From contig CAVTNR010000005.1 of assembly GCA_963736115.1 (NCBI GenBank), positions 32,001 to 96,000 on the forward strand: a stretch of 64,000 nt of DNA, written 5' to 3'. Every line of letters starts with the position of its first letter. The first letter of the stretch is position 1. Origin of the DNA: an uncultured bacterium (lineage in GTDB: Bacteria; Zhuqueibacterota; QNDG01; DTFT01). Shown one piece after another: positions 6,598-63,257 of the stretch. The translations under genes were made by a program, and so were the position numbers. The notes below the pieces were generated by a model. That model was not told the DNA's origin. It saw nothing but the letters and a program-made list of their open reading frames with translations, and did no database searches.

Positions 6598-6679
6598 GTT
6601 CCGGGTTCGGAGTGCCGGGTTCCGAGTCGAAACATCCCTGATCACCAACTCGGAACCCGAAACCCTGAACACGGAACCT
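6598..6679. repeat. Inverted pair of degenerate heptamer arrays (GGGTTCC/GGAACCC family)
   Basis: gttccgggttcggagtgccgggttccgagt ... actcggaacccgaaaccctgaacacggaacc. Confidence 0.7.
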
Positions 6680-6685
6680 CAAGCG

Positions 6686-6813
6686 GGTAGCCGCGACCTT
6701 CAGGTCGCGCCCTTTAACAAGGGAACCTTGAAAGAATAATCGCGGGCTGAAGCCCGGTTGAACGGGATCAATCTATTATTATATGCATATCGTATTGAAG
6801 GCCCGCGGCTACC
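6686..6813. repeat. GTAG-type REP doublet (REPIN-like) with an internal cassette
   Basis: GGTAGCCGCGACCTTCAGGTCGCG ... CGCGGGCTGAAG[cassette]GCCCGCGGCTACC; right half homologous to 63146-63214. Confidence 0.7.
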
Positions 6814-6865
6814 GAATATTCCGATATCCGATAGCTCTACGACTTCGTCGCGGAGCATTTCGGAC

Positions 6866-15754: not shown

Positions 15755-15830
15755 TGCCCCGGACTTGATCCGGGGACGCTCGGCATATCGGACCTGCAAC
15801 TTTTTAACTCGGAACGCGGAACTCGGAACT
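15755..15830. repeat. Palindrome CCCCGGACTTGATCCGGGG plus a short GGAACTC heptamer run
   Basis: Hairpin at ~15757-15776; aactcggaacgcggaactcggaact abuts the ApbE stop. Confidence 0.55.
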
Positions 15831-24673: not shown

Positions 24674-26221
24674 CTAGAACATATATGTCCGTATCGAATG
24701 CGCCGGGCTCTCGGTTCTGACCGACCTCTCCCCCAGCCGCACCGCATAGGAAACGGGTGTGTCCGTACGGTTCAGGACCACAAGCGCCAGGGAACCGTCC
24801 GGGTTCCGGAACGCCGTAGTCTCCAGTTCGTCCACGGAAGCGGCGGATGCGATGCGCACCGCGCCCGGTTTGATGAACCTGGAGAAATGGCCGATATAAT
24901 AATAAGAGTTCATAAAATGCAGGCCGTCCGTTCGCGTGTCCGCATGCACGGGCGCGAAGCAGAAATTGCCCACATGATTGGGTCCGCCTGTTTCATCGAG
25001 CAGGATGTTCCAGTCCACCCAGCCGACGGTCCAGCGGTTCAGATCCGCGAGGATCGATTTGCCGTAGGCCTCGCCCATACTCCAGTCGTCCAGCTTTTTC
25101 GCGTCATACGGCCCGAGGCATCCCTCGGTGAACAGCAGTGCCTTGTCCGGGAACATTTCGTGCGCGAGCCGCACATTGTCGAAATTGTCACTGACGTACC
25201 AGTGGAATCCCATGCCCCATACATACCGGCCGGCGGCCGGATCGGACAGGATGGTGTTCGCCCATTCGGGCAGACGGTTCCGATTGTGGTCGTACCCGAT
25301 CACACGGACGTTGAATCTGTCAGCGAGCGCATTCCCCGCGGCTTGCCGCGGGGCAAGCGAGCGAATATCAGATGTCTCCTCTCTACAGATAGAAGATTCC
25401 CCGCCGCTTGCGGCGGGGAGCTTCAACAGCCCAGCCCGCTCGAGCGCGGGTCCCAGATGGTCGCGGATGAAGTCGCGCTGTTCCCCCGCCGTGAACACGC
25501 AGGAATCCCATGTCTGGGTGGCCTCCGGCTCGTTCTGCGGCGTCAGTCCCCAGATCGGAATCCCTTCCTTCTCGTATTCCCGGATGTATCGGACAAAGTA
25601 CTCCGCCCAGACCCCGCGGCATTCCGGCTTCAGCTTGCCGCCGTTGTTCATCTTGCCATTGGTCTTCATCCAGGCCGGCGGGCTCCAGGGCGAGGCGAAG
25701 AGCTTGAGCGGGCCGCCGGCCGCGCGGAACGCCTCGCGGATCAGGGGAATCAGCGCCTTCCGGTCCCTTTCGATGGAGAATTTCTTCAGCTCGAAATCGC
25801 CGGGCGTTTCGGCGTACGCGTAATTGCCCGTGGAAAAGTCGCAGCTGTTGATGTGCGTGCGGCAGAGTGTGTACGCATTCCCGCGGACGGGATCGAAGTA
25901 GGCCTCGAGCACGGCCGCGCGCTTCGCCGGGCTCAATTTGTAGAAGGTCACAGCCGCGGACTCGGTGAAGGCGCCGCCGAATCCCTCGATGGTCTGATAG
26001 TGCTGCGCCGGCTCAACCCAGACAGAGGTGATACGGTTGTCGAAGAACGCGTCCGCCGGAACGGATTCGAAAGAAAGCGCGGCCTTTTCCGCCAGACGGT
26101 CCGGCGTGTCTTTCGCGGTCTGAAATACACGGAGGCCGCGGGACGCGGGTGTATCCTGGCCCTGGGCCGTTGCCGCGAACCCGATGATCAGCATCATCCA
26201 ACTTCTTTTCCATGCCTGCAT
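24674..26221 (-). CDS. Glycoside hydrolase family 30 (glucosylceramidase-like), secreted, with an in-frame repeat insertion
   Basis: GFGGAFTES, RTHINSCDFS, ASPWSPPAWMK, QNEP, DHNR, FHWY, FTEGC, WVDWN..LD..GGPNHV.N. Confidence 0.93.
   Translation of the reverse strand: MQAWKRSWMMLIIGFAATAQGQDTPASRGLRVFQTAKDTPDRLAEKAALSFESVPADAFFDNRITSVWVEPAQHYQTIEGFGGAFTESAAVTFYKLSPAKRAAVLEAYFDPVRGNAYTLCRTHINSCDFSTGNYAYAETPGDFELKKFSIERDRKALIPLIREAFRAAGGPLKLFASPWSPPAWMKTNGKMNNGGKLKPECRGVWAEYFVRYIREYEKEGIPIWGLTPQNEPEATQTWDSCVFTAGEQRDFIRDHLGPALERAGLLKLPAASGGESSICREETSDIRSLAPRQAAGNALADRFNVRVIGYDHNRNRLPEWANTILSDPAAGRYVWGMGFHWYVSDNFDNVRLAHEMFPDKALLFTEGCLGPYDAKKLDDWSMGEAYGKSILADLNRWTVGWVDWNILLDETGGPNHVGNFCFAPVHADTRTDGLHFMNSYYYIGHFSRFIKPGAVRIASAASVDELETTAFRNPDGSLALVVLNRTDTPVSYAVRLGERSVRTESPAHSIRTYMF
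25310..25427 (-). mobile_element. ~118-bp double-palindrome MITE/REPIN-like element, copy 1 (in-frame inside GH30)
   Basis: Ends GTTGAA...TTCAAC; two CCCCGCnGCAAGCnGCGGGG hairpins; aligns by eye end-to-end with 36852-36971. Confidence 0.85.
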
Positions 26222-26483
26222 ATCCGCCTCCTTTTCAGATGCCCTGAACCGGCCGTTCCGGACCTTCCTTTTTCGCTTGACATTCACGGTAAATTTTAGG
26301 AAATTGATGACAGAAAATAGGAGTGTTCATCCCTGCTCCAGTAGCAACCACATCTATAAAGAACCTTCAAATCAGAGAGACAGGGAGCCCGACTCTGGAC
26401 GCGTATTACAGGCCTCCATCGAGTGGAAGTAAAAAACGTCAGGGGGGCACCCACCGTGTGACCCACGGTTCTTTATAGCCATG

Positions 26484-26855: not shown

Positions 26856-26969
26856 GTCATTTTCCTTCGGGTGGATGCGCTCGCGGACAGATTCCGGGCC
26901 GGACGCACGGTCTGGCAGCCGGCCGGATGTTTGCTTTTGCCGGACGCCGGACGGCGCACGGCGGCCGGC

Positions 26970-28512
26970 TCAGACCATGGTCGTGAAATCCCGGTCGAGG
27001 CTCCGGTACTGGATGGCCTCGGAGAGGTGCTGTGGTTTTATGGATTCCGAGCCATCGAGGTCCGCGATGGTCCGGGACACTTTCAGGATGCGGTCGTAGG
27101 CGCGGGCCGACAGGCCCAGGCGCGTGATCGCGCGGCCCAGCAGGGCGTCGCTTTCAGGGCCGACGACTCCGTATTTCCGGATGTCCCTCGGCGTCATGTG
27201 CGCGTTGCAGTACACACCCGGCCGGCCCTTGAAACGCTCGGTCTGCATGCGCCGCGCGGCCATGACCCGGCGGCGCACGGTTTCGGAGGTCTCGCCCGTG
27301 GCGCGGCCCGCCAGCTCCCGGTAGGGAATGGCCGGCACCTCGACGTGTATGTCGATGCGGTCGAGCAGGGGTCCCGAGATGCGGGCGCGGTACCGCTGAA
27401 CGTCCATGACCGTGCACGCGCAGGAATGCAGGGGGTTTCCGAAATGGCCGCAGGGACAGGGATTCATGGCCGCGACCAGCATGAATACGGCCGGATACGT
27501 GACCGTGAGCGCGGCGCGCGCGATGGTGACGCGGCCGTCCTCCATGGGCTGGCGCAGCACTTCGAGCACGTTCTTGCGGAATTCCGGGAGTTCGTCCAGG
27601 AACAGGACGCCGTGGTGGGCGAGGCTGACTTCCCCGGGCCTGGGCAGGTGGCCGCCGCCGATGAGGCCCGCGTCCGAAATGGTGTGATGCGGCGATCGGA
27701 ACGGCCGCGTGGCGATCGAGCGCGGTGTCCGTCGGCAGAAGGCCCGCGACCGAATGGATCTTCGTGGTTTCGAGCGCCTCCTCGAGCGTCAGGTCCGGCA
27801 GCACGGTCGGGATGCGCTTCGCCAGCATCGTCTTTCCGGAACCCGGGGGTCCGATCATCAGCGCGTTGTGCCCGCCCGCGGCCGCGACTTCAAGACTGCG
27901 CTTGACGTGTTCCTGGCCCTTGACGTCCTGAAAATCCACGCCGTAGGAGGCGACGCGGGCGAAGACGTCCTCCATCGCGACCGTGAAGGGCGGGTCTTTT
28001 CTCACCCCGTCGAGGATTTCCACGGCCTGCCGCAGGGTCTCGACCGGGTGCACGGCCAGCCCCAGCGCCATGGCGGCCTCCTTCGCGTTCTGCTTCGGAA
28101 GCAGAATGGCCGGCACTGCCGCGTCGCGCACCGCGATCGAAATCGGAAGCCCGCCGCGTATGGCCCGGACCTGGCCGTCCAGCGCCAGTTCGCCCAACAC
28201 CACCGTATCCCGCAGTTTTTCCGGGTCGATCTGTCCGCTGGCCGCAAGTATGCCGATAGCCATGGGCAGGTCGTAGGCGGACCCCTCCTTCCGGATGTCT
28301 GCGGGAGCCAGGTTCACCGTGATCCGCTTGTTCGGCAGGTAATACCCGGCGTTCCGTATCGCCGCGCACACCCGCTCCTTGGATTCCTTGACTGCGCTGT
28401 CCGGAAGCCCCACGGTCACGAAAGCGGGTAATCCGCCCTCGAAATGGGTTTCAACCTGGACGATGTAGCCCTCGATGCCCAGCACTGCCGCGCTCAATAC
28501 TTTCGCAAACAT
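26970..28512 (-). CDS. comM: YifB/ComM Mg-chelatase-like AAA+ ATPase; single frameshift at ~27717 (probably an assembly error)
   Basis: [38 protein letters not shown]; after the shift [40 protein letters not shown]. Confidence 0.9.
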
Positions 28513-31748: not shown

Positions 31749-31784
31749 CGAAAACAGAGACCTGAAAGGTCTTCATTAAAGAAA

Positions 31785-31929
31785 GTTCATAGTTCATGGT
31801 TCATAGTTCTGAAAGCGTTAAAATTCAGTTCAGAGTCTGAAAAAAAAAGCCGCAAGGTTCTGCTTGCGGCTTGTTTTTTTGGGGAGGGGGGGCGGGGAAC
31901 TATGAACTATGAACCATGAACAATGAACT
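31785..31929. repeat. Inverted GTTCAT(A/G/T) heptamer arrays flanking a bidirectional terminator
   Basis: gttcatagttcatggttcatagttc ... gaactatgaactatgaaccatgaacaatgaac. Confidence 0.85.
31839..31880. terminator. Bidirectional terminator between pit and the TolB-like gene
   Basis: A-run AAGCCGCAAG-loop-CTTGCGGCTT T-run. Confidence 0.8.
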
Positions 31930-31933
31930 TTTC

Positions 31934-33500
31934 TTACCGTGCCGGCTGCCAGGTTTGTTCCTCCGCGTCCATATCCTTCGAGGATGAGACGACCGGACCC
32001 GCGGACCGGCTGTTCAACGTCCGGTCCGTGTCGAGCGCCGCGTCGAGTATCTTCTTCCTGCTCTGACGGACGGGTTCGGCAACCAGCTCCGGCACATTGA
32101 ACGTATAGAGGTGGGACTCGTACAGGCCCGGATCCTTCTGCGGAAGCACGAACGGTTTGGAAACCGCGCCGTCCGCATCCACATGCGCGAAATACGGCCT
32201 GGCCAGCACGCCGTCTCCCCGCTTGCTGCTGAATACGAACCAGCGGCTGCCGGATGACCAGGAATGATAACTGTCGGATTGGCCGCTGTTGCATTCAAGC
32301 CGCCGGAACGTTCCTGATTCCAGGTCCATCATATACAGGTCCGTTCCGGGACGGTAGATGGAAAAATTGCCGTACTCGCAGAGGCAGAACAGCAGAAAAC
32401 GGCCGTCCGGCGACACGCGAGGGTGGGTCGCGCTGAGCCCGGTCCGGGCCGCGGCCAGCACCGTGACCGGCCGGCCGAATCCGCCCGTCACCGGATCATA
32501 GGACGCTTTCATCAGGTCGTATTTGATTTTCCGGTAGGTGTGGCGTTCGAAGAATCCGGTCGTGTCATAGGCCGGAGCGCTGCAGAAATACAGGGTGCGG
32601 CCGTCCGGCGCCCAGGCCGGGTAGGTTTCGAGCCGCGAGGGATCCGCGATTTCCGGCGGCGCGGCCACGGACAGCGGAATCGATCCGGCAGACGGCCAGA
32701 TCCGAGGTCAGGTCGTACACGTCGCGGTTCGGTCCGGCCGTGTGGAAGAACTGTTTGACCTTCATGTTCGCGAATGCGAGGGTCCGGCCGTCCGGGTGCC
32801 AGGACGCGTACGCCGCGGGCGCCGGGACCTGCCCGGTCTGCGTCCGCATCAGCCGGGTCCGCCCGTCCACCGTGAGGAGCATGGCCGTGGACGGCGCGCC
32901 GCGCAGGTGAACGAGCCAGCGGTCCGTGCGATTCCCGGAGAATGTGTGGCAGTTGAAGCACCCGTCCTGCATGGCCCGGTTGTCCAGAATGACGCGTTCT
33001 TCGAAGCTCCCGAGGTTCCGTTCAACGACGGACAGTCGCTTCCAGAAAATGCAGACCGGCGGCATTTTCCGGTACACGAGAAAACCGTCAATGGAATCGG
33101 GAGACACACGGTTGACGATCGGGTCGAACCGGAGCCACCGGTCCAGTGAATCCCGGACCGTGACCGAAAACCGAATGTCCCGGCCCCGGTTGGCGTCGAG
33201 CAGGCGGCGCCACGGACCGGCCGGAAAAACCACATCCCGGCCCCTTCCCCGGAACCGGAATCCGGTCCCGTCCGCGCCTTTCGCTTCGACCCGGAAGTCT
33301 TCGGCCTTTTCCATCACCCGGAAATTCAGCGGCGCGAGATTCGGCGGGATTTCAATTCCGGAATAATCCGGTTCAATCACGGGCGGCCGGCCGATGGCCT
33401 GAACAGCACCCGGATCCGGCGAGCCGCATCCCGCGAGAAAACCAGCCGCCGGAAAAACGGCCAGACACAGCCGCAGTGCGCATCGGAACGGATGGTTCAT
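31934..33500 (-). CDS. TolB-like/PD40-repeat lipoprotein; frameshift at ~32675
   Basis: LAGC lipobox, PDYSGIEIPPNLAPLNF, CFNCH, YASWHPDG; second frame YPAWAPDG, HPRVSPDG, DSYHSWS, FVLPQKDP. Confidence 0.8.
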
Positions 33501-36851: not shown

Positions 36852-36971
36852 GTTGAAGATTCCCCGCGAGAAGCCGCGGGGAATCTTCTATCTGTAGTGA
36901 AGAAAATACACTATATTCGCTCGCATACCCCGCCGCAAGCGGCGGGGTATGCGCGAGCGATCAGATTCAGC
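36852..36971 (+). mobile_element. ~120-bp double-palindrome element, copy 2 (intergenic, rpsA-mtaB)
   Basis: GTTGAAGATTCCCCGCGAGAAGCCGCGGGGAATCTTCTATCTGTAG...TATTCGCTCGCATACCCCGCCGCAAGCGGCGGGGTATGCGCGAGCGATCAGATTCAGC. Confidence 0.85.
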
Positions 36972-39885: not shown

Positions 39886-40501
39886 CCTGGAGTTCCTTGA
39901 TTCGGGTCATGGTGTCTTCTCCGATGCGCCTGTACCATTCCTTCACCGACATCCCACGGGGAGGCGAGGCGGGAACGGCGAACGGCTCCCCGAACCGGAT
40001 TTCCACGCGCCTGCAGGGGAAGTTGCGGAGAAGGTGGAACGTTCCGGACAGGTGCACCGGCAGGATCGGGCATCCGGAGCGGGCCGCCAGCATGCCGACC
40101 CCGCGCCGGCCCTGCTGCAGCCGCCCCGTCCTGGAACGGGTGCCCTCGGGAAACAATAGCAGGGGTTTTCCGGATTCGAGCGCCTCCGCGGCCGCGCGCA
40201 GCGCGCCCGTATCCGCGGAACCCCGGTGCAGGGGAATACTCCCGAGGTGCCGGAGCAGGCGGGCCAGAAGCGGATTCCGGAAAAGCTCCGCCTTCGCCAG
40301 AAACGCCAGCTGCCGGGGGCAGGCGAGACCCATGAAAACGGGATCGTAGTTCGCGCAGTGGTTCACGGCCACAATGACTCCGCCGGTTTCGGGGAGGCTC
40401 GCCTCGCCGCTCACGCGCACTCCGAAGAAGGCCCGTATCAGCGGGTAGCCGACGGTGTACAGGGCCTGATAGACCGAGTTGTCCGGGAATCTACGGGCCA
40501 C
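39869..40501 (-). CDS. plsC: 1-acyl-sn-glycerol-3-phosphate acyltransferase
   Basis: NHCANYDP, FLAKAELF, FPEGTRS. Confidence 0.9.
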   Translation of the reverse strand: MARRFPDNSVYQALYTVGYPLIRAFFGVRVSGEASLPETGGVIVAVNHCANYDPVFMGLACPRQLAFLAKAELFRNPLLARLLRHLGSIPLHRGSADTGALRAAAEALESGKPLLLFPEGTRSRTGRLQQGRRGVGMLAARSGCPILPVHLSGTFHLLRNFPCRRVEIRFGEPFAVPASPPRGMSVKEWYRRIGEDTMTRIKELQDGRHS

Positions 40502-41272
40502 CGCGTTCCCCCTGTTTCCGACGGACGGCTTCGAGAATGAGGCTGACCTGGCCGTCCAGCGTCAGCCCGGTCGTATCGATCGTGACGGCGTCCCCGGCGG
40601 GCCGGAGCGGGCTGTGCGCACGCCGGCTGTCCCGGAGGTCGCGGGCTTCAATTTCGCCGGCGATACGCTCGACCGGGACCGAAATGCCCCTGGCCTCCTG
40701 GTCGCGCTTCCGGCGCTCCGCCCGCTCTTCCAGCGAGGCGGTGAAGTAGAATTTCAGGTCCGCATCCGGAAAAACCACCGTGCCCTGGTCCCGGCCGTCG
40801 GTGATCAGGTTGCCCCGTTCGGCGAAAGCCCGCTGGCGCGGGACGAGCGCCTCGCGCACGCCCGCGATCTCGCAGACCGGACCCACGGCACGGTCCACCT
40901 CCGGCGTGCGGATGTCGGCGGTGACGTCACGGCCGTCGAGAAGAACGCGCAATCCGTTTTTTTCCGGATCAGATCGATCCGGCAGGAACGGGCCGCATCC
41001 GCGATGCGTCCGGCGTCGGTCAGGGGGATCGATTCGCGGAGCACCTTGAGGGCCACGGCCCGGTACATCGCTCCGGTGTCGAGGTAGAGCCAGCCGAGCT
41101 TTTCGGCGGCCAGGCGGGCGGTCGTGCTTTTTCCGGACGCGGCCGGTCCGTCGAGTGTGACGACGGTTCCGCGTTCCGGGCTTGGAGTGAGTGGGTTGAT
41201 AATGAACCCGGTTCGGTTATGGGTGAATGAAGGGCGATGGACGACGGGCCATCGTTTCCCGACTGTTTTCAC
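40491..41272 (-). CDS. cmk: Cytidylate kinase; frameshift at an A-run ~40957-40963; start uncertain
   Basis: [21 protein letters not shown]; second frame [22 protein letters not shown]. Confidence 0.88.
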
Positions 41273-42280
41273 TCAAACTGTTTCTTGGTTCCTACTCGAA
41301 GGGATTGCGGTTCCGTGTTTCGAGTTCCGTGTTCCGGGTTTCGTGTTCCGGGTTCCGTGTTTCGGGTTGAATGGTTTTCTGATTCTGAAACCCTTCTTCG
41401 ACCCGGAGCCCTGAATCCGAAACGGATCGCCTACTGGTTCGGGTTTCGGCGGGATCGGTTTCCCGGTGATCCGCAGGTCCTTGCTCGACTCGGAACTCGG
41501 AACCCGGAACTCGGAACCTCTTTTCGTCTTTGAACCTTGAACCTTGAACTTTGAACTCACATCTTTGGAAAGCCCCACGGCCCGGTACAGCATCCGGATC
41601 TCTTCCGGCTTCAGGTCGCGCCACTCGCCCAGCGCCAGGCCCCGGACAGTCAGACCGCCGAAACTGACGCGCGCGAGCCGCCGCACCGTGAAGCCGAGAG
41701 TCCCAAACATGCGGCGCACCTGGCGTTTCTTGCCCTCGTGAATCCGGACCTCGACCAGCGTCTCGGCGCCCACCCGCCGCACCGCGTGCGCCTCGCCTCG
41801 GGCCACGAATCCGTCCTCGATGACCACGCCCTTCCGGAAACGCTTCGCGGCGTCCTCGCCGAAAGGCCCCGGCACCCAGGCGCGGTAGAGTTTGTCGATT
41901 TCGTACCGCGGATGGGCCAGGCGGTGCGCCAGTTCCCCGTCGTTGGTCAACAGCAGAACGCCTTCCGTATCCAAATCCAGCCGACCGACCGGGAACAGGC
42001 CGTGCGGCTCCCCGACGAGATCGAGTACCGTCTTCCGGCCCTGGTCGTCCCGAACGGTGGTGACCGCGTCCGCGGGCTTGTTCAAAAGAACGTACCGGAA
42101 CCGCCGCGCCGGGTGAAGGATTTTACCGTCCAGTTTCACGGCGTCCTCCTGCTCCCCCACCTGGACGCCGAGCCTTTCAATCCTGTGTCCGTTGATCGAA
42201 ACACGGCCTGCGGCGATCATCTCATTGGCTTTCCGTCTCGAAGCGACGCCGCACAGGGCCAGGTATTTATTGAGCTGCAT
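41273..42280 (-). CDS. rluB: 23S rRNA pseudouridine synthase (RluB/RsuA family) with a repeat-derived C-terminal extension
   Basis: LNKYLA.CGVASRRKA S4 domain, VGRLDLDTEG.LLLTNDG, EGKKRQVRRM. Confidence 0.9.
   Translation of the reverse strand: MQLNKYLALCGVASRRKANEMIAAGRVSINGHRIERLGVQVGEQEDAVKLDGKILHPARRFRYVLLNKPADAVTTVRDDQGRKTVLDLVGEPHGLFPVGRLDLDTEGVLLLTNDGELAHRLAHPRYEIDKLYRAWVPGPFGEDAAKRFRKGVVIEDGFVARGEAHAVRRVGAETLVEVRIHEGKKRQVRRMFGTLGFTVRRLARVSFGGLTVRGLALGEWRDLKPEEIRMLYRAVGLSKDVSSKFKVQGSKTKRGSEFRVPSSESSKDLRITGKPIPPKPEPVGDPFRIQGSGSKKGFRIRKPFNPKHGTRNTKPGTRNSKHGTAIPSSRNQETV
41309..41557. repeat. Heptamer arrays (GTGTTCC/GGAACTC/TTGAACC) within the rluB 3' end
   Basis: ttccgtgtttcgagttccgtgttccgggtttcgtgttccggg...; actcggaactcggaacccggaactcggaac; ttgaaccttgaaccttgaactttgaac. 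Confidence 0.85.
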
Positions 42281-44983: not shown

Positions 44984-45487
44984 TCAGCTCATGAAGAGAT
45001 AGGGTTTCCAGCGCTCGTCCGGAATATGCGCCTGCGTCTGGATGAAGAACAGGTATCCCGGCTTCCGCGGCTTGCGAAGCAGCTGCATGCCGGCTTCCTG
45101 CGGCGTCCGGTTGCGCTTGTGGCTGTTGCAGAGGGAGCAGGCGCAGACCAGGTTCTCCCAGGTGTCCTGACCGCCCCGGTCACGCGGGACGATGTGGTCC
45201 ACCGTGAACGGGCTCTTTTCCGTGCCGCAGTACTGACAGCGGTGGTTGTCCCGCTTGATGATGTTGTTCCTCGACAGCAGGATGCGTTTCCGCGGCACGT
45301 GAATCAAGCGCGACAGACGGACGATGCTTGGCAGGATGTAGCATTCGCTCACCGAATGGACTGTCCGGTCCGAGCTTTCGATCACTTCCACCTTTCCCAG
45401 CACCTGGAGCACGACCGCCTTCCGTGCGCTGCAGATGGAAAGCGGCTCGTAGTTCTGGTTGAGAATGAGAACCCTGCCTTCGAGCAT
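44984..45487 (-). CDS. HNH endonuclease
   Basis: VLILNQNYEPL, RDNHRCQYCG, TVDHIVPRDRGG.DTWENLV.AC..CN..K. Confidence 0.92.
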   Translation of the reverse strand: MLEGRVLILNQNYEPLSICSARKAVVLQVLGKVEVIESSDRTVHSVSECYILPSIVRLSRLIHVPRKRILLSRNNIIKRDNHRCQYCGTEKSPFTVDHIVPRDRGGQDTWENLVCACSLCNSHKRNRTPQEAGMQLLRKPRKPGYLFFIQTQAHIPDERWKPYLFMS

Positions 45488-45708: not shown

Positions 45709-45784
45709 TGGGGCGTAGCATAGCTGGCAATGCGCCTGGCTGTTAACCAGGATACCGAAGGTTCGAGTCCTTCCGCCCCAGCCA
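45709..45784 (+). tRNA. tRNA-Asn(GTT)
   Basis: TGGGGCG/CGCCCCA acceptor, GCAT/ATGC D-stem, CCTGG-CT-GTT-AA-CCAGG, GAAGG-TTCGAGT-CCTTC, G73, encoded CCA. Confidence 0.92.
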
Positions 45785-48183: not shown

Positions 48184-49318
48184 CACGGCCGGACGGGACC
48201 TGAAGGCCGCCGACACGGAAAGTCCGCAGCCGGGATCCCCGGTCGAAACGGCGCTCGGCAACATCCGGCCCCTGGTCCGGTCGCTGAAGGGGTATCCCGC
48301 GCCGCAACAGGGCGAAATGATCGCCAAGCTCAACCAGAACGAGAATCCCTATGACGTGCCGGCCGAATGGAAGGACGAAATACTCGAGTCCATGCGCAGT
48401 CTGGAGTGGACCCGCTACCCGGCCTACGATCCCCCGGAACTGAGGGAGAAGCTGGCGGCCCGGCTCGGCGTGGAACCGGACCGCATCCTGCTGGGAAACG
48501 GATCCAACCAGATTCTTTTTCTGCTGGGAACGGCACTCCTGTCGCCCGGCGACCGGGTGGTGATTGCACCGCCGACCTTCTCGCTGTTCGAAACCGCGGC
48601 GCGGATCGCGCACGGGTCCGTGGTCCTGGTGGATCAGAATCCCGATTTCTCCGTGGACGGCACGAAAGTCCTTGCCGCCGCGGAAAGCGCCCGTCTGACT
48701 TTTCTCTGCTCGCCCGACAATCCAACCGGGCACACCGTGCCCCTGGACTTCCTGGAGTCCGTGTGCGGCGGCACATCCGGCCTGGTCGCCTGGGACGAGG
48801 CGTACGGCGAGTTCTGGGGCGAGACGGCGGTGCCGCTGATCGACCGGCATCCGAACCTCGTCATCCTCAAGACCTTCTCCAAGGCCCTGGGACTGGCGGG
48901 CCTGAGGATCGGCTATCTCATCGGCCACCCGTCCATCGTGGCCGAACTGAAGAAGGTGAACATTCCTTTCAATGTGAATCTGATGAGCAACCTGACGGCA
49001 CTCAAACTCCTGGACCGGCCGGAATGGATCGCCGAGCAGGCGGGCCGCATCGTCTCGGAGCGGAACCGCCTGTCCGAGGCGCTCCGCTCCATCCCCGGAA
49101 TCACGCCCTTTCCCAGCGCGGCGAATTTCATTCTGATGCGGACGCCGGAAGGAGACGCCGTATTCAACGGACTCAGGGCCGAGGGCATTCTGGTGCGGCC
49201 CACGGAGGCCCACCCCCTGCTGAAGAACTGCCTGCGCGTGACCGTTGGAAAACCGGATGAGAATGAGGCGTTCCTGGCGGCGCTGCGGAGGGTGGTAAAG
49301 AAAGTTCATAGTTCATAG
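48152..49318 (+). CDS. hisC: Histidinol-phosphate aminotransferase
   Basis: KLNQNENPY, GNGS, CSPDNPTG, DEAYGEF, KTFSKALGLAGLRIGY. Confidence 0.95.
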   Translation: MSTPSENASNDTAGRDLKAADTESPQPGSPVETALGNIRPLVRSLKGYPAPQQGEMIAKLNQNENPYDVPAEWKDEILESMRSLEWTRYPAYDPPELREKLAARLGVEPDRILLGNGSNQILFLLGTALLSPGDRVVIAPPTFSLFETAARIAHGSVVLVDQNPDFSVDGTKVLAAAESARLTFLCSPDNPTGHTVPLDFLESVCGGTSGLVAWDEAYGEFWGETAVPLIDRHPNLVILKTFSKALGLAGLRIGYLIGHPSIVAELKKVNIPFNVNLMSNLTALKLLDRPEWIAEQAGRIVSERNRLSEALRSIPGITPFPSAANFILMRTPEGDAVFNGLRAEGILVRPTEAHPLLKNCLRVTVGKPDENEAFLAALRRVVKKVHSS

Positions 49319-49436
49319 TTCATGGTTCATTGGGAAAAAGTTCATGGTTCATTGTTCATAGTTCATAGTAAAAAGAAATCTCTGTCGGCTTCCTTATTCT
49401 TTTTTAACTATGAACTATGAACCATCAACTATGAAC
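49304..49436. repeat. Inverted GTTCATN heptamer arrays between hisC and hisB
   Basis: Two forward runs and one reverse run; the hisC stop (TCA TAG) lies in the array. Confidence 0.85.
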
Positions 49437-54498: not shown

Positions 54499-54501
54499 CA
54501 A

Positions 54502-54620
54502 GTTCATTGTTCATAGTTCATGGTTCATAGTTGAAAAAGACAACTTTGAATGAATATCGTTGTTTCTTTAACTATGAACTATGAACCATGAACTATGAAC
54601 AAAAGAATATAAGCTATGAA
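54502..54620. repeat. Inverted GTTCATN heptamer arrays
   Basis: gttcattgttcatagttcatggttcatag ... ctatgaactatgaaccatgaactatgaac. Confidence 0.85.
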
Positions 54621-55380: not shown

Positions 55381-55486
55381 GTTCGAGTTCATGGTTCATA
55401 GTTCATGGTTCATAGTCAAAGAAGCAACATTCCAAATTGCACGCCAACTTTTTCAACTATGAACGATGAACCATGAACTATGAACT
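55381..55486. repeat. Inverted GTTCATN heptamer arrays
   Basis: gttcatggttcatagttcatggttcatag ... ctatgaacgatgaaccatgaactatgaac. Confidence 0.85.
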
Positions 55487-59165: not shown

Positions 59166-60030
59166 ATGGCTAACCTTCGCATCGGCACATGCTCGTGGAA
59201 ATACGATTCCTGGAAAGGACTCGTCTATTCCGGAAAGGCCGGCGGAGACGCCCTCTCCGAATACAGCCGGCTTTTCAACACCGTCGAGATCGACCAGTGG
59301 TTCTGGTCCCTGCACGACGCGGAGAGGATCACGCTGCCGGACCCGGCCGTGGTCCGATCATACGCCGATGCGGTTCCCGGCGACTTCCGCTTCACCGTCA
59401 AGGCGCCGAACAGCGTCACACTCACCCATTTCCACAAAAAATCGAAATCGGATCCCCTCGTTCCGAACTCCCGTTTTCTCTCCATCCCCCTGCTCGAAGC
59501 GTTTCTGGAGCGTCTGGATCCCATGAAAAGCCGTCTCGGCCCGATTCTCTTCCAGTTTGAATATCTCAACCGCCAGAAAATGACCGTCCCAGGCCGTGTT
59601 TCTCGAGGCCTTCGGCGCCTTCATCCGGAAATGTCCGGACGGTTACGCGTACGGCCTGGAAATCCGAAATCCGAATTACCTGAACGACAGCCTGTTTGCT
59701 TTCATGGAGAAAGAGGGGATCATCCCGGTCCTCCTGGAGGGATATTACATGCCTCCGGTCCGGCAGATCGTGGAAGCCCAATCGCCCCACATCCGAAAAT
59801 CCGTGGTGTTGAGACTGCACGGTCCGGACCGGGAAGGGATGGAGGAAAGATCAGGGAAGAAATGGGACCGCATCGTTGTGCCGAGGGATGCGGAACTGAA
59901 GGAAATATCGAAGCTCGTGGATGGATTTCTGAATCGGGGCGTTTCCGTTTACGTGAATGTGAACAACCACTACGAGGGCTGCGCGCCGCTGACCATCGAA
60001 AAATTGAGACACCTTTTCAAAAGCGGATAA
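59166..60030 (+). CDS. DUF72 family protein; frameshift at ~59583
   Basis: RIGTCSWKY..W, NTVEID, FRFTVKAP, LFQF; second frame EIRN, RLHG, YVNVNNHYEG.AP. Confidence 0.85.
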
Positions 60031-60144
60031 TCCCGGGTGTCCGTCTTTCCCTGCAAAAAAAAGTAATCCCCGAAAGACGGTTCCCTTCTGCCTGCTCCTT
60101 TAAACGATGCCCCGGGGCGATCACTTTCAAGTCTGCGGGCGCAC

Positions 60145-60474
60145 TCAGTCCACGATGAAAAGCCGCGCGCCGGATTCCGTATGGGACCGGTGGGCTTCCG
60201 CGCCGTCCGCGACCTGGTAGCTCATGCCCGGTTTCAGCACCGCTTCGGCTCCGCCCTCCAGTTCCACGGTCAGTTCACCCTCGAGGCAGAGCAGAATATG
60301 GCCCTTCGAACACCAGTGGTCGGCCTTGTATCCGGGCGAGTAGTCGACCATCCGGACCCGGATGTCTCCGAAATTCCGGGTTCGCCAGGTCGCCTGCCCC
60401 TTTTCGCCCGGATGGAGGCTTTTTTCCACTATCTCCCAGTCGGTTGTCTGGAAGGGGATATCGGTTAATCTCAA
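60145..60474 (-). CDS. DHCW-motif cupin fold protein
   Basis: IPFQTTDW, HPGEKG.A.WRT, RVRMVDYSPGYKADHWCSKGH, ARLFIVD. Confidence 0.9.
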   Translation of the reverse strand: MRLTDIPFQTTDWEIVEKSLHPGEKGQATWRTRNFGDIRVRMVDYSPGYKADHWCSKGHILLCLEGELTVELEGGAEAVLKPGMSYQVADGAEAHRSHTESGARLFIVD

Positions 60475-63145: not shown

Positions 63146-63257
63146 GCAGCCTGAAGCCCCGATGAACGGGATCAATTGATTGTAATCTTTCATTATTGAA
63201 GAGCTGCGGCTACCAATAGATTTAAACCCGGAACCCCAAACCCGGAACACGGAACCG
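63146..63257. repeat. REP half with the same internal cassette as 6741-6813, followed by GGAACCC heptamers
   Basis: GCAGCCTGAAGCCCCGATGAACGGGATCAAT-N18-ATTGAAGAGCTGCGGCTACC. Confidence 0.7.

Follow-up and report, generated by a model that had tools for sequence, protein, structure and literature searches.

A 111-nt two-hairpin repeat read in frame within a GH30 glycoside hydrolase gene of an uncultured bacterium: a probable IS200/IS605-type element without genes of its own

The DNA analysed here is a 64-kb stretch of contig CAVTNR010000005.1 from an uncultured bacterium, the whole of which we call the window (G+C 61%), and it carries a short, hairpin-bearing repeat at two places: once inside the coding sequence of a glycoside hydrolase of family GH30 and once in the 3' region of rpsA. 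A first-pass annotation of the sequence had described both copies, at 25310-25427 and 36852-36971, and this observation is confirmed. The two segments align from end to end once one of them is reverse-complemented; a 20-mer common to both occurs exactly twice in the window, where 100 shuffles give an expectation of 0; and a search with the family profile (nhmmer) returns two full copies, of 111 and 113 nt. The features of the gene and of the repeat are given below, the guides, cleavage sites and top strands being putative assignments made from alignments and from the end architecture set out later.

24674..26287, minus strand: gene for a GH30 glycoside hydrolase; the longest open reading frame (ORF) starts at GTG 26287 and the database protein, P0002, at ATG 26221
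25312..25315, plus strand: target tetranucleotide TGAA of copy 1 (left cleavage site), present once and unduplicated
25316..25426, inferred top strand plus: element copy 1, 111 nt, bounded by alignments; read on the minus strand as residues 266-302 of P0002
25330-25333, plus strand: left guide CATT of copy 1
25334-25353, plus strand: left hairpin of copy 1, 8-bp stem and 4-nt loop, with its foot 18 nt from the left cleavage point
25395..25426, plus strand: right end of copy 1, comprising the right guide GATT (25395-25398), the right hairpin (25399-25418) and an 8-nt tail that ends in the right cleavage site TCAA (25423-25426)
36853..36965, inferred top strand minus: element copy 2, 113 nt, of the other subfamily, bounded by alignment
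36862-36881 and 36928-36947: the two hairpins of copy 2
36966..36969: target tetranucleotide of copy 2, TTCA on the plus strand and TGAA on the minus strand
26866-26895, plus strand: probable remnant of a left-end linker with its target, about 24 nt, matching at 20 of 24 bases and lying just upstream of a STAS-domain gene

The last of these falls below what nhmmer reports at E<=1e-3 and, judged by its sequence, is probably what is left of a third copy. Copy 2 lies between the stop codon of rpsA (37022) and a terminator-like hairpin (36828-36799) and is therefore probably cotranscribed with rpsA. The copy in the GH30 gene differs from the consensus of its own subfamily at 2 of 115 positions.

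The product of the GH30 gene is matched in Pfam by Glyco_hydro_30 (the TIM barrel; E 2.9e-80), in two stretches, and by Glyco_hydro_30C (the C-terminal sandwich domain). We aligned it with 15 of 120 listed relatives, namely the ten nearest, with the window's own protein excluded, and five further ones. The insert is missing from 15/15 of these orthologues, none of which carries the loop in any form, and they include P0003, which is 94% identical over the alignment. In P0003 the Leu that closes the preceding helix is followed directly by Phe-Asn-Val, and in the protein of the window 37 residues stand between; the net gain is exactly 37 residues (111 nt), and not the 38-39 that had been proposed. 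The match to 2wnw_A (PDB) is broken into two blocks, query residues 68-266 against chain residues 35-231 and query 307-503 against chain 235-430, and since it splits around the insert, the insert stands in place of a three-residue link. An in-frame insertion at a normally short link, as the first-pass annotation had it, is thus what the orthologues and the structure bear out.

In an AlphaFold (AF2) model of 515 residues (pTM 0.83) the insert, at 266-302, falls between a helix (245-262) and a strand (306-313). The helix-to-strand links of TIM barrels lie on the face opposite the active site, and the model would put the insert in such a link, on the barrel face away from the catalytic glutamates. 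Residues E231 and E366 align with positions 196 and 294 of 2wnw_A, which we take to be its catalytic Glu pair, and both are invariant in the GH30 alignment. A single insertion would have hit the gene at a TTC-AAC (Phe-Asn) site; because the unit is 111 nt long and has a stop-free reading frame, the gene remains open and the enzyme is longer by 37 residues. As the closest orthologues lack the insert and the copy is near-identical to the family consensus, the insertion is recent, and the added segment is most likely tolerated, not useful.

The repeat belongs to a multi-copy family, as two copies in 64 kb had already suggested. A genome collection that does not contain the window's own genome was scanned with an exact 18-mer from the element core, and 32 loci were returned (these carry the prefix L where they are named below, and proteins the prefix P). 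The whole element is present at 30 of them, in four metagenome-assembled genomes (MAGs) from related uncultured bacteria, with 14, 11, 4 and 1 copies. The records of these MAGs are CAZNXX01, JAFGAX01, JAFGEX01 and JAUCQC01. The remaining two, in a Synechococcaceae record and a Flavobacteriaceae record, contain the 18-mer only and were set aside as chance matches. A further three full copies are found no more than 1.5 kb away from seed copies, so that the exact-word count is a lower bound. Both ends are present at 27 of the 30 loci; simple units, which run from TTGAAG to ATTCA, occupy ten loci and measure 115-119 nt, and longer copies, of 158-302 nt, occupy 17. Copies are found in both orientations and fall into two subfamilies, which differ by one base pair per hairpin. 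In L021 a host palindrome has the element in its loop. A BLASTN search of plasmids and phages with copy 2 gave no match.

The copies in L022 and L027 end at contig ends, joined there to apparent adapter-like or homopolymer runs (a long C run in L027), and element repeats therefore break metagenome assemblies. It might be asked whether the GH30 insert was created by the assembler, through the collapse of a repeat into a place where it does not belong, in an assembly that has three frameshift-split genes and from a class of data in which repeats are hard to assemble. The insert, however, has the length of exactly one unit and stands at a target of the canonical kind, both of its flanks continue orthologous GH30 sequence, and like in-frame insertions are seen independently in other assemblies, so we give this explanation very little credence.

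The boundaries of the element are exact. Over 12 simple copies, similarity begins at precisely TTGAAG and ends at ATTCA, with unrelated sequence in the flanks. The final TTCA, TGAA on the other strand, is target and not element, and there is no inverted terminal repeat. The first-pass annotation had taken GTTGAA...TTCA(A/G)C for the element ends; that string is indeed present, but its outer G and its AC or GC belong to the flank, its TTCA is the target and the two sides do not form an inverted repeat. The GH30 gene shows the same division in its length, with a net gain of 111 nt against a TTGAAG-to-ATTCA span of 115 nt, and its empty site, read from the orthologue alignment, is Leu-Phe-Asn, of which Phe-Asn is compatible with TTCAAC.

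Three comparisons of filled and empty sites are available, GH30 and QueE at the protein level and L003/L014 at the DNA level, and in none of them is target sequence gained or lost. The QueE protein P0141, which contains a degenerate copy in the opposite orientation, has 249 aa against 212 aa in 7/7 aligned orthologues; where P0166 (86% identical) reads Arg-Leu-Asn-Pro, P0141 has Leu, 37 extra residues and then Asn. The empty site Leu-Asn corresponds to xTG-AAy and contains TGAA, as had been predicted beforehand. L003 and L014 are orthologous DNA at 92% identity and share one copy of the element; a second copy, of 113 nt and 700 nt away, is found in L003 only, where positions 689-879 of the locus (minus strand) are to be compared with the empty site at 2160-2240 of L014. 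The TTCC that follows this second copy occurs once in the empty site, an off-consensus target, GGAA, on the other strand. Alignment of L003 with L014 leaves an overlap of 3 nt, and the ambiguity of 2-3 nt at such junctions arises because the left and right cleavage sites share bases. At the tandem junctions of L005 and L009 the second element is placed exactly between CAGA and the target of the first. Read on the other strand, then, the element is inserted 3' of TGAA and terminates in TCAA, with neither inverted ends nor target duplication; TGAA stands beside 28/29 complete copies, the remaining one having CGAA, and the three extra copies have TGAA twice and GGAA once.

Such comparisons also bear on the idea that the repeat is an immobile structured RNA or regulatory signal, an attenuator or a set of RNA-stabilising hairpins, and that the GH30 stretch is an ancestral loop. 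Its predicted structure is certainly strong (z for the DNA fold of copy 2 is -11 to -12, with a lowest value of -11.8), many copies lie just after or just before genes, and copy 2 sits in the rpsA 3' region with a terminator downstream. Against this, presence and absence are precise at three loci, copies occur in both orientations and inside unrelated coding genes, and the 15 GH30 orthologues have no loop for the stretch to descend from. Rfam at the gathering score gives six tRNAs only in the window and no family matching the element, and a permissive Rfam scan around copy 2 gives four matches at chance level (E 0.3-1). We regard an immobile signal as highly improbable.

A second alternative is raised by the TT overlap that is seen at each filled/empty junction. 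A classical MITE (miniature inverted-repeat transposable element), bounded by terminal inverted repeats (TIRs) and moved by a cut-and-paste DDE transposase, could leave such an overlap as a 2-nt TT/AA target duplication, and the window copies do seem to start with GTTGAA and to end with TTCAAC or TTCAGC. With the target set aside, however, the ends are not inverted copies of each other; C-A follows the right-hand TT in 28/29 copies, so that a target preference would be needed as well; the predicted cleavage point is exactly where tandem copies meet; and no DDE transposase is found in the scanned ORFs of the window and the locus flanks (the scan is described below). The model of a TT duplication with inverted repeats was rejected on the ends, which are not inverted, and on the L003/L014 junction, and we consider a MITE of the classical kind very unlikely.

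Within these boundaries each element has two subterminal hairpins of 20 nt, with an 8-bp stem and a 4-nt loop, on the same strand and with the same loop polarity. Over 12 copies the stem positions pair in 98.4% of cells, a figure that drops to 42-56% once the partners are displaced by 1-3 columns; both hairpins are folded in a single-strand DNA prediction. A swap of C:G for G:C at one pair per stem separates the subfamilies, and in each copy the two hairpins differ from each other there. The compensatory stem differences noted at first reading are therefore real, although they come down to one base pair per hairpin, two subfamilies and about two events. The linkers are asymmetric in the window copy, the left one measuring 18 nt and the right one 8 nt. 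Each hairpin, moreover, has on its 5' side four bases that are matched to a cleavage site: the guide/site pairs CATT/TGAA and GATT/TCAA are Watson-Crick at G1:C2, G2:C1 and G4:C4 at both ends, and the sole position at which the two sites differ (G versus C) is matched by the sole position at which the guides differ (C versus G). The left guide CATT is found at 26/32 left ends; the right guide lies inside the 18-mer search word, and so its constancy is uninformative.

The arrangement may be set beside that of IS608 (the papers cited here and below by PMC number were available to us as excerpts, and what we draw from them is limited to those excerpts). IS608 inserts 3' of TTAC with no gain or loss of sequence; its cleavage sites are placed 19 nt from the left hairpin, on the 5' side, and 10 nt from the right hairpin, on the 3' side, and these sites are recognised via a four-base guide that lies 5' of the foot of each hairpin (PMC3201880). 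Its guides and cleavage sites are GL AAAG with CL TTAC and GR GAAT with CR TCAA, joined by the G1:C2 and G2:C1 pairs A+16:T-3 and A+17:T-4 (PMC5934647). Across the IS200/IS605 family both the complementarity of guide and cleavage site and the longer left linker are conserved (PMC3597680).

On the strength of its target, the lack of inverted ends and of duplication, the same-strand hairpins, the linkers and the guide pairing, we therefore read the repeat as a palindrome-associated transposable element (PATE): probably, that is, a geneless and non-autonomous transposon of the IS200/IS605 type, which moves as single-stranded DNA and relies on a Y1 transposase acting in trans. Four end features of a PATE are all present, namely the target, palindromes without TIRs, linker asymmetry and guide complementarity. 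From these ends we infer both the kind of enzyme and a single-strand pathway. A Y1 (HUH) transposase supplied from another place in the genome would bind to the pair of subterminal hairpins of a single strand, and the tetranucleotides 5' of these hairpins would guide it to the cleavage sites; the strand would then be excised as a circle, which would be inserted 3' of TGAA in single-stranded DNA with no duplication. The observation itself is solid and the mechanism well supported, the cognate enzyme not having been found in the DNA scanned. What has happened at the GH30 gene is an event of a known type, in which the traces left by the element's mode of movement are unusually clear.

The first-pass annotation had left the choice between TnpA of the IS200/IS605 type and a REP-associated tyrosine transposase (RAYT), either of them acting in trans, and it is the end architecture, together with the pairing of guides and cleavage sites, that favours TnpA. 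A repeat of the type of repetitive extragenic palindromes (REPs), or of the REP doublets known as REPINs, moved by a RAYT, would share much with the family: its hairpins are G+C-rich and multi-copy, the copies are mostly intergenic, GTAG occurs in the spacer, and RAYTs are also Y1 HUH enzymes (PMC3333891). REPs, though, bear their GTAG or CGTC tag at one end (PMC3733652), and the GTAG here is 13 nt away from the hairpin foot and not at the foot; a REPIN is made of two inverted REPs (PMC3337134), whereas the hairpins of the element are direct. The unit has a fixed length of 111 nt, a target of four nucleotides, linkers that are unequal and guides that pair, all of which fits ends of the IS608 type, and the scanned ORFs of the window and locus flanks include no RAYT. 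We think this origin unlikely.

A number of points nevertheless weigh against the reading of the repeat as a PATE and of the GH30 insert as its product. Pfam finds no transposase of any family among window ORFs of at least 121 aa, in keeping with the remark that the window holds none, nor in all 277 ORFs of at least 125 aa in the approximately 85 kb that flank the 30 loci. (The ORFs were run in three batches: the 150 longest of the window, of at least 136 aa; the 150 longest of the loci; and the remaining 127 of the loci with 23 of the window of 121-135 aa, 27 window ORFs of 110-120 aa being left out.) The two window copies are opposite in orientation and 11.5 kb apart, where a strict lagging-strand bias predicts otherwise. 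Two targets, GGAA and CGAA, are off at the first base, and 6/32 left ends have other guides (CTTA, CATC, CAAT, AATT, CATA) with the target not changed to match. The match of guide and cleavage site is in effect one observation, made on the family consensus, and the G4:C4 pair enters it from the general background on the IS608 rule. Assembly quality is imperfect, as three other window genes split by frameshifts attest. For the protein, pLDDT is below 50 over residues 273-300 of the GH30 model, which may merely reflect that no aligned sequence covers the insert and is weak evidence for a disordered loop, and continued activity and expression of the enzyme with its insert are presumed.

If the repeat is a PATE, it is one that has entered proteins more than once. 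Of the six frames in which the unit can be read, three are stop-free. Of the 32 copies located on DNA three are read through in genes, those for the GH30 enzyme, a protein of the nitroreductase family and an MBL-fold hydrolase. The gene of the nitroreductase family (L032, its protein being P0143) holds a 250-nt composite that contributes 84 residues, with the Pfam match on the part downstream; in the MBL-fold hydrolase gene (L018) the unit follows codon 3, with the starting Met-Arg-Arg before it and, after it, the hydrophobic core of an N-terminus that resembles a signal sequence. The copies in L002 and L013 abut gene starts, and there a flanking A and the TG of the target together make ATG.

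Searches with the encoded peptides extend this set. The forward-frame peptide gave 21 matches at E<=1e-3 against 1.84 billion representatives, 17 of them shorter than 160 aa; these representatives are clustered at 50%, by which host proteins that differ by the insert alone are hidden. The reverse-frame peptide, compared with longer proteins, gave 21 proteins at E<=1 among 45 candidates, and 16 were inspected. In 5/16 the peptide is well inside a recognisable protein: a PIN protein (P0129), a GT4 transferase (P0130), ApbE (P0131), QueE (P0141) and the nitroreductase (P0143). In 10/16 it is at or near the N-terminus, seven of these ten proteins starting at the peptide or a few residues before it and the other three having it upstream of a signal peptide or first domain; one of the 16 is a doubtful ORF. 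Host genes with an in-frame copy are hence at least seven (GH30, nitroreductase, MBL-fold, PIN, GT4, ApbE and QueE), and the parallel that had been drawn with Rickettsia palindromic elements (RPEs) holds to that extent.

The ten N-terminal cases are most likely 5' insertions into which gene callers have extended. Seven public predictions (P0125, P0133, P0135, P0137, P0139, P0140 and P0144) start at or just before the peptide, and six of the seven begin with an ATG composed of the flanking A and the target TG, which yields N-termini M-N-L; these starts are likely to be a systematic annotation artefact in the lineage. In-frame carriage requires only a length that keeps the frame and a G+C-rich, stop-poor sequence, and insertions that break genes go unseen. 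A strict multiple-of-three unit length was considered and rejected, as it is true for the commonest sizes only: simple copies add 111-115 nt net, and the modules described next measure 43-46 nt. We also rejected ApbE P0131 as an orthologue of the ApbE of the window (29% identity over 98 residues), and no empty site was gained from it.

The extra length of the 17 longer copies is made up of a second repeat of 43-46 nt, which we call the B module and which is the most unusual part of the find. It has a single small hairpin, the conserved motif AyCAAGC, a segment rich in A+T and an end that reads TTGAAGr, and it lacks inverted ends. A B profile finds 35 copies in a sample biased towards element-bearing loci, and 33 of them are nested in hairpins that belong either to the element or to one of its diverged copies; a single element holds at most four.

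Loci with nested B modules: L001, L003, L005, L007, L009, L011, L014, L016, L017, L019, L020, L022, L024-L027 and L030-L032

The modules take two positions. Those on one strand separate the 5' arm of a hairpin, left or right, from its loop; those on the other strand form a distinct subfamily and are found at the right hairpin's foot, with the guide on one side and the stem on the other. Near-identical B modules are present in different hairpins of different elements, and so the modules either move or undergo exchange. Some of them are translated along with the element that hosts them, in P0131, P0133, P0139, P0140, P0143 and P0144. Two models for the movement of the modules were discarded: the IS608 guide rule fits neither strand, and an inverted-repeat model does not fit. 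It is conceivable, and we put it forward tentatively, that element and module make up a two-tier system of parasites that dwells partly in proteins, a PATE that acts in the manner of RPEs as a generator of 37-residue loops and B modules that home to its hairpins. Were this so, the modules would be a bacterial counterpart of the haloarchaeal SMR-A elements and among the smallest of mobile DNAs, and they might act as saboteurs of the PATE or as hitch-hikers on it.

The window contains a number of other repeats and genes. A core like that of the B module is found outside the element at 6750-6803 and 63154-63204, within a wider repeat at about 6742-6815 and 63146-63215; both of these repeats end in a CGGCTACC motif, and each adjoins a palindrome made of a heptamer array. 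Intergenic palindromes of that kind, which consist of 7-nt units in tandem (three to five of GTTCATR, facing the complement), are found at 31777-31936, 49303-49436, 54501-54607 and 55382-55486, and a G+C-rich version of GTTCCGG type at 6598-6677, 15806-15829, 41308-41518 and 63222-63257. We take the heptamer palindromes to be a repeat family separate from the element. The frameshift-split genes, each in two overlapping ORFs of different frame, are at 26970-28512 (ComM/Mg-chelatase-like), 40491-41272 (cytidylate kinase) and 59166-60158 (DUF72), and they reflect either real frameshifts or assembly indels. A stand-alone HNH endonuclease ORF of 167 aa lies at 44984-45487 on the minus strand, beside a tRNA gene at 45709-45781.

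Short repeats carried in frame are one route to new surface loops of proteins, and the RPEs are the classic case. The present family displays the same behaviour in an uncultured, free-living lineage, and its ends can be read base by base as those of an IS608-type element; given a transposase, the route from transposition to new peptide could be tested with a few oligonucleotides and one enzyme. There is a practical side as well, as public gene calls turn many of the copies into false M-N-L extensions at the N-terminus. In a limited library we found no description of this family, or of a PATE recurrently translated in host proteins, and hairpin-seeking nested modules extend to bacteria a phenomenon that we found described, in the excerpts at hand, for haloarchaea only.

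Of the known systems to which the family may be likened, the REPs and REPINs are also G+C-rich hairpin repeats of high copy number whose proposed mover is a Y1 HUH enzyme acting in trans. The element differs from them as a fixed unit with two direct hairpins and a tetranucleotide target, an arrangement other than that of a REPIN.

The likeness to IS608 and to the PATEs, which were first defined in Haloquadratum walsbyi (PMC3119063), goes much further. In common with them the element has no TIRs or target duplication, near-terminal palindromes on one strand and a left linker that is the longer; insertion is 3' of a short fixed oligonucleotide that is retained on the left flank; the tetranucleotides 5' of the hairpins are complementary to the cleavage sites; and the element is too short for a transposase. 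It differs in that neither a matching tnpA nor a full-length parent turned up in the window or the locus flanks, that the TGAA target and the hairpin sequences are unlike those of any element compared, and that 111 nt is at the small end. It is, furthermore, repeatedly read through in protein-coding genes, which the excerpted account of the PATEs does not report (PMC3119063).

The RPEs are short palindromic repeats found in frame in unrelated genes, to which they add a conserved peptide that is apparently compatible with the fold, and in-frame insertion has been described for some other MITEs too (PMC10969869). Recurrent in-frame insertion in unrelated genes, encoding a conserved peptide, is what the present family shares with the RPEs, and the likeness is one of behaviour and not of membership: the host lineage is another. 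The two differ also in that a minority of copies lie in genes here (3/32 of those located on DNA), and in that the excerpt gives no mobilisation mechanism for RPEs (PMC10969869), whereas this family has IS608-like ends.

For the B modules the nearest comparison is with SMR-A of the haloarchaea, elements of approximately 110 bp with inverted terminal repeats, free of transposase and making no target duplication, which insert preferentially in the near-terminal palindromes of PATEs and IS605-type elements by a mode of movement given as unknown (PMC3119063). The B modules resemble them in being small and without a transposase, in their preference for near-terminal palindromes and in the absence of duplication, and differ from them in being 43-46 nt long, with one small hairpin and no inverted ends, in being bacterial and in being sometimes translated.

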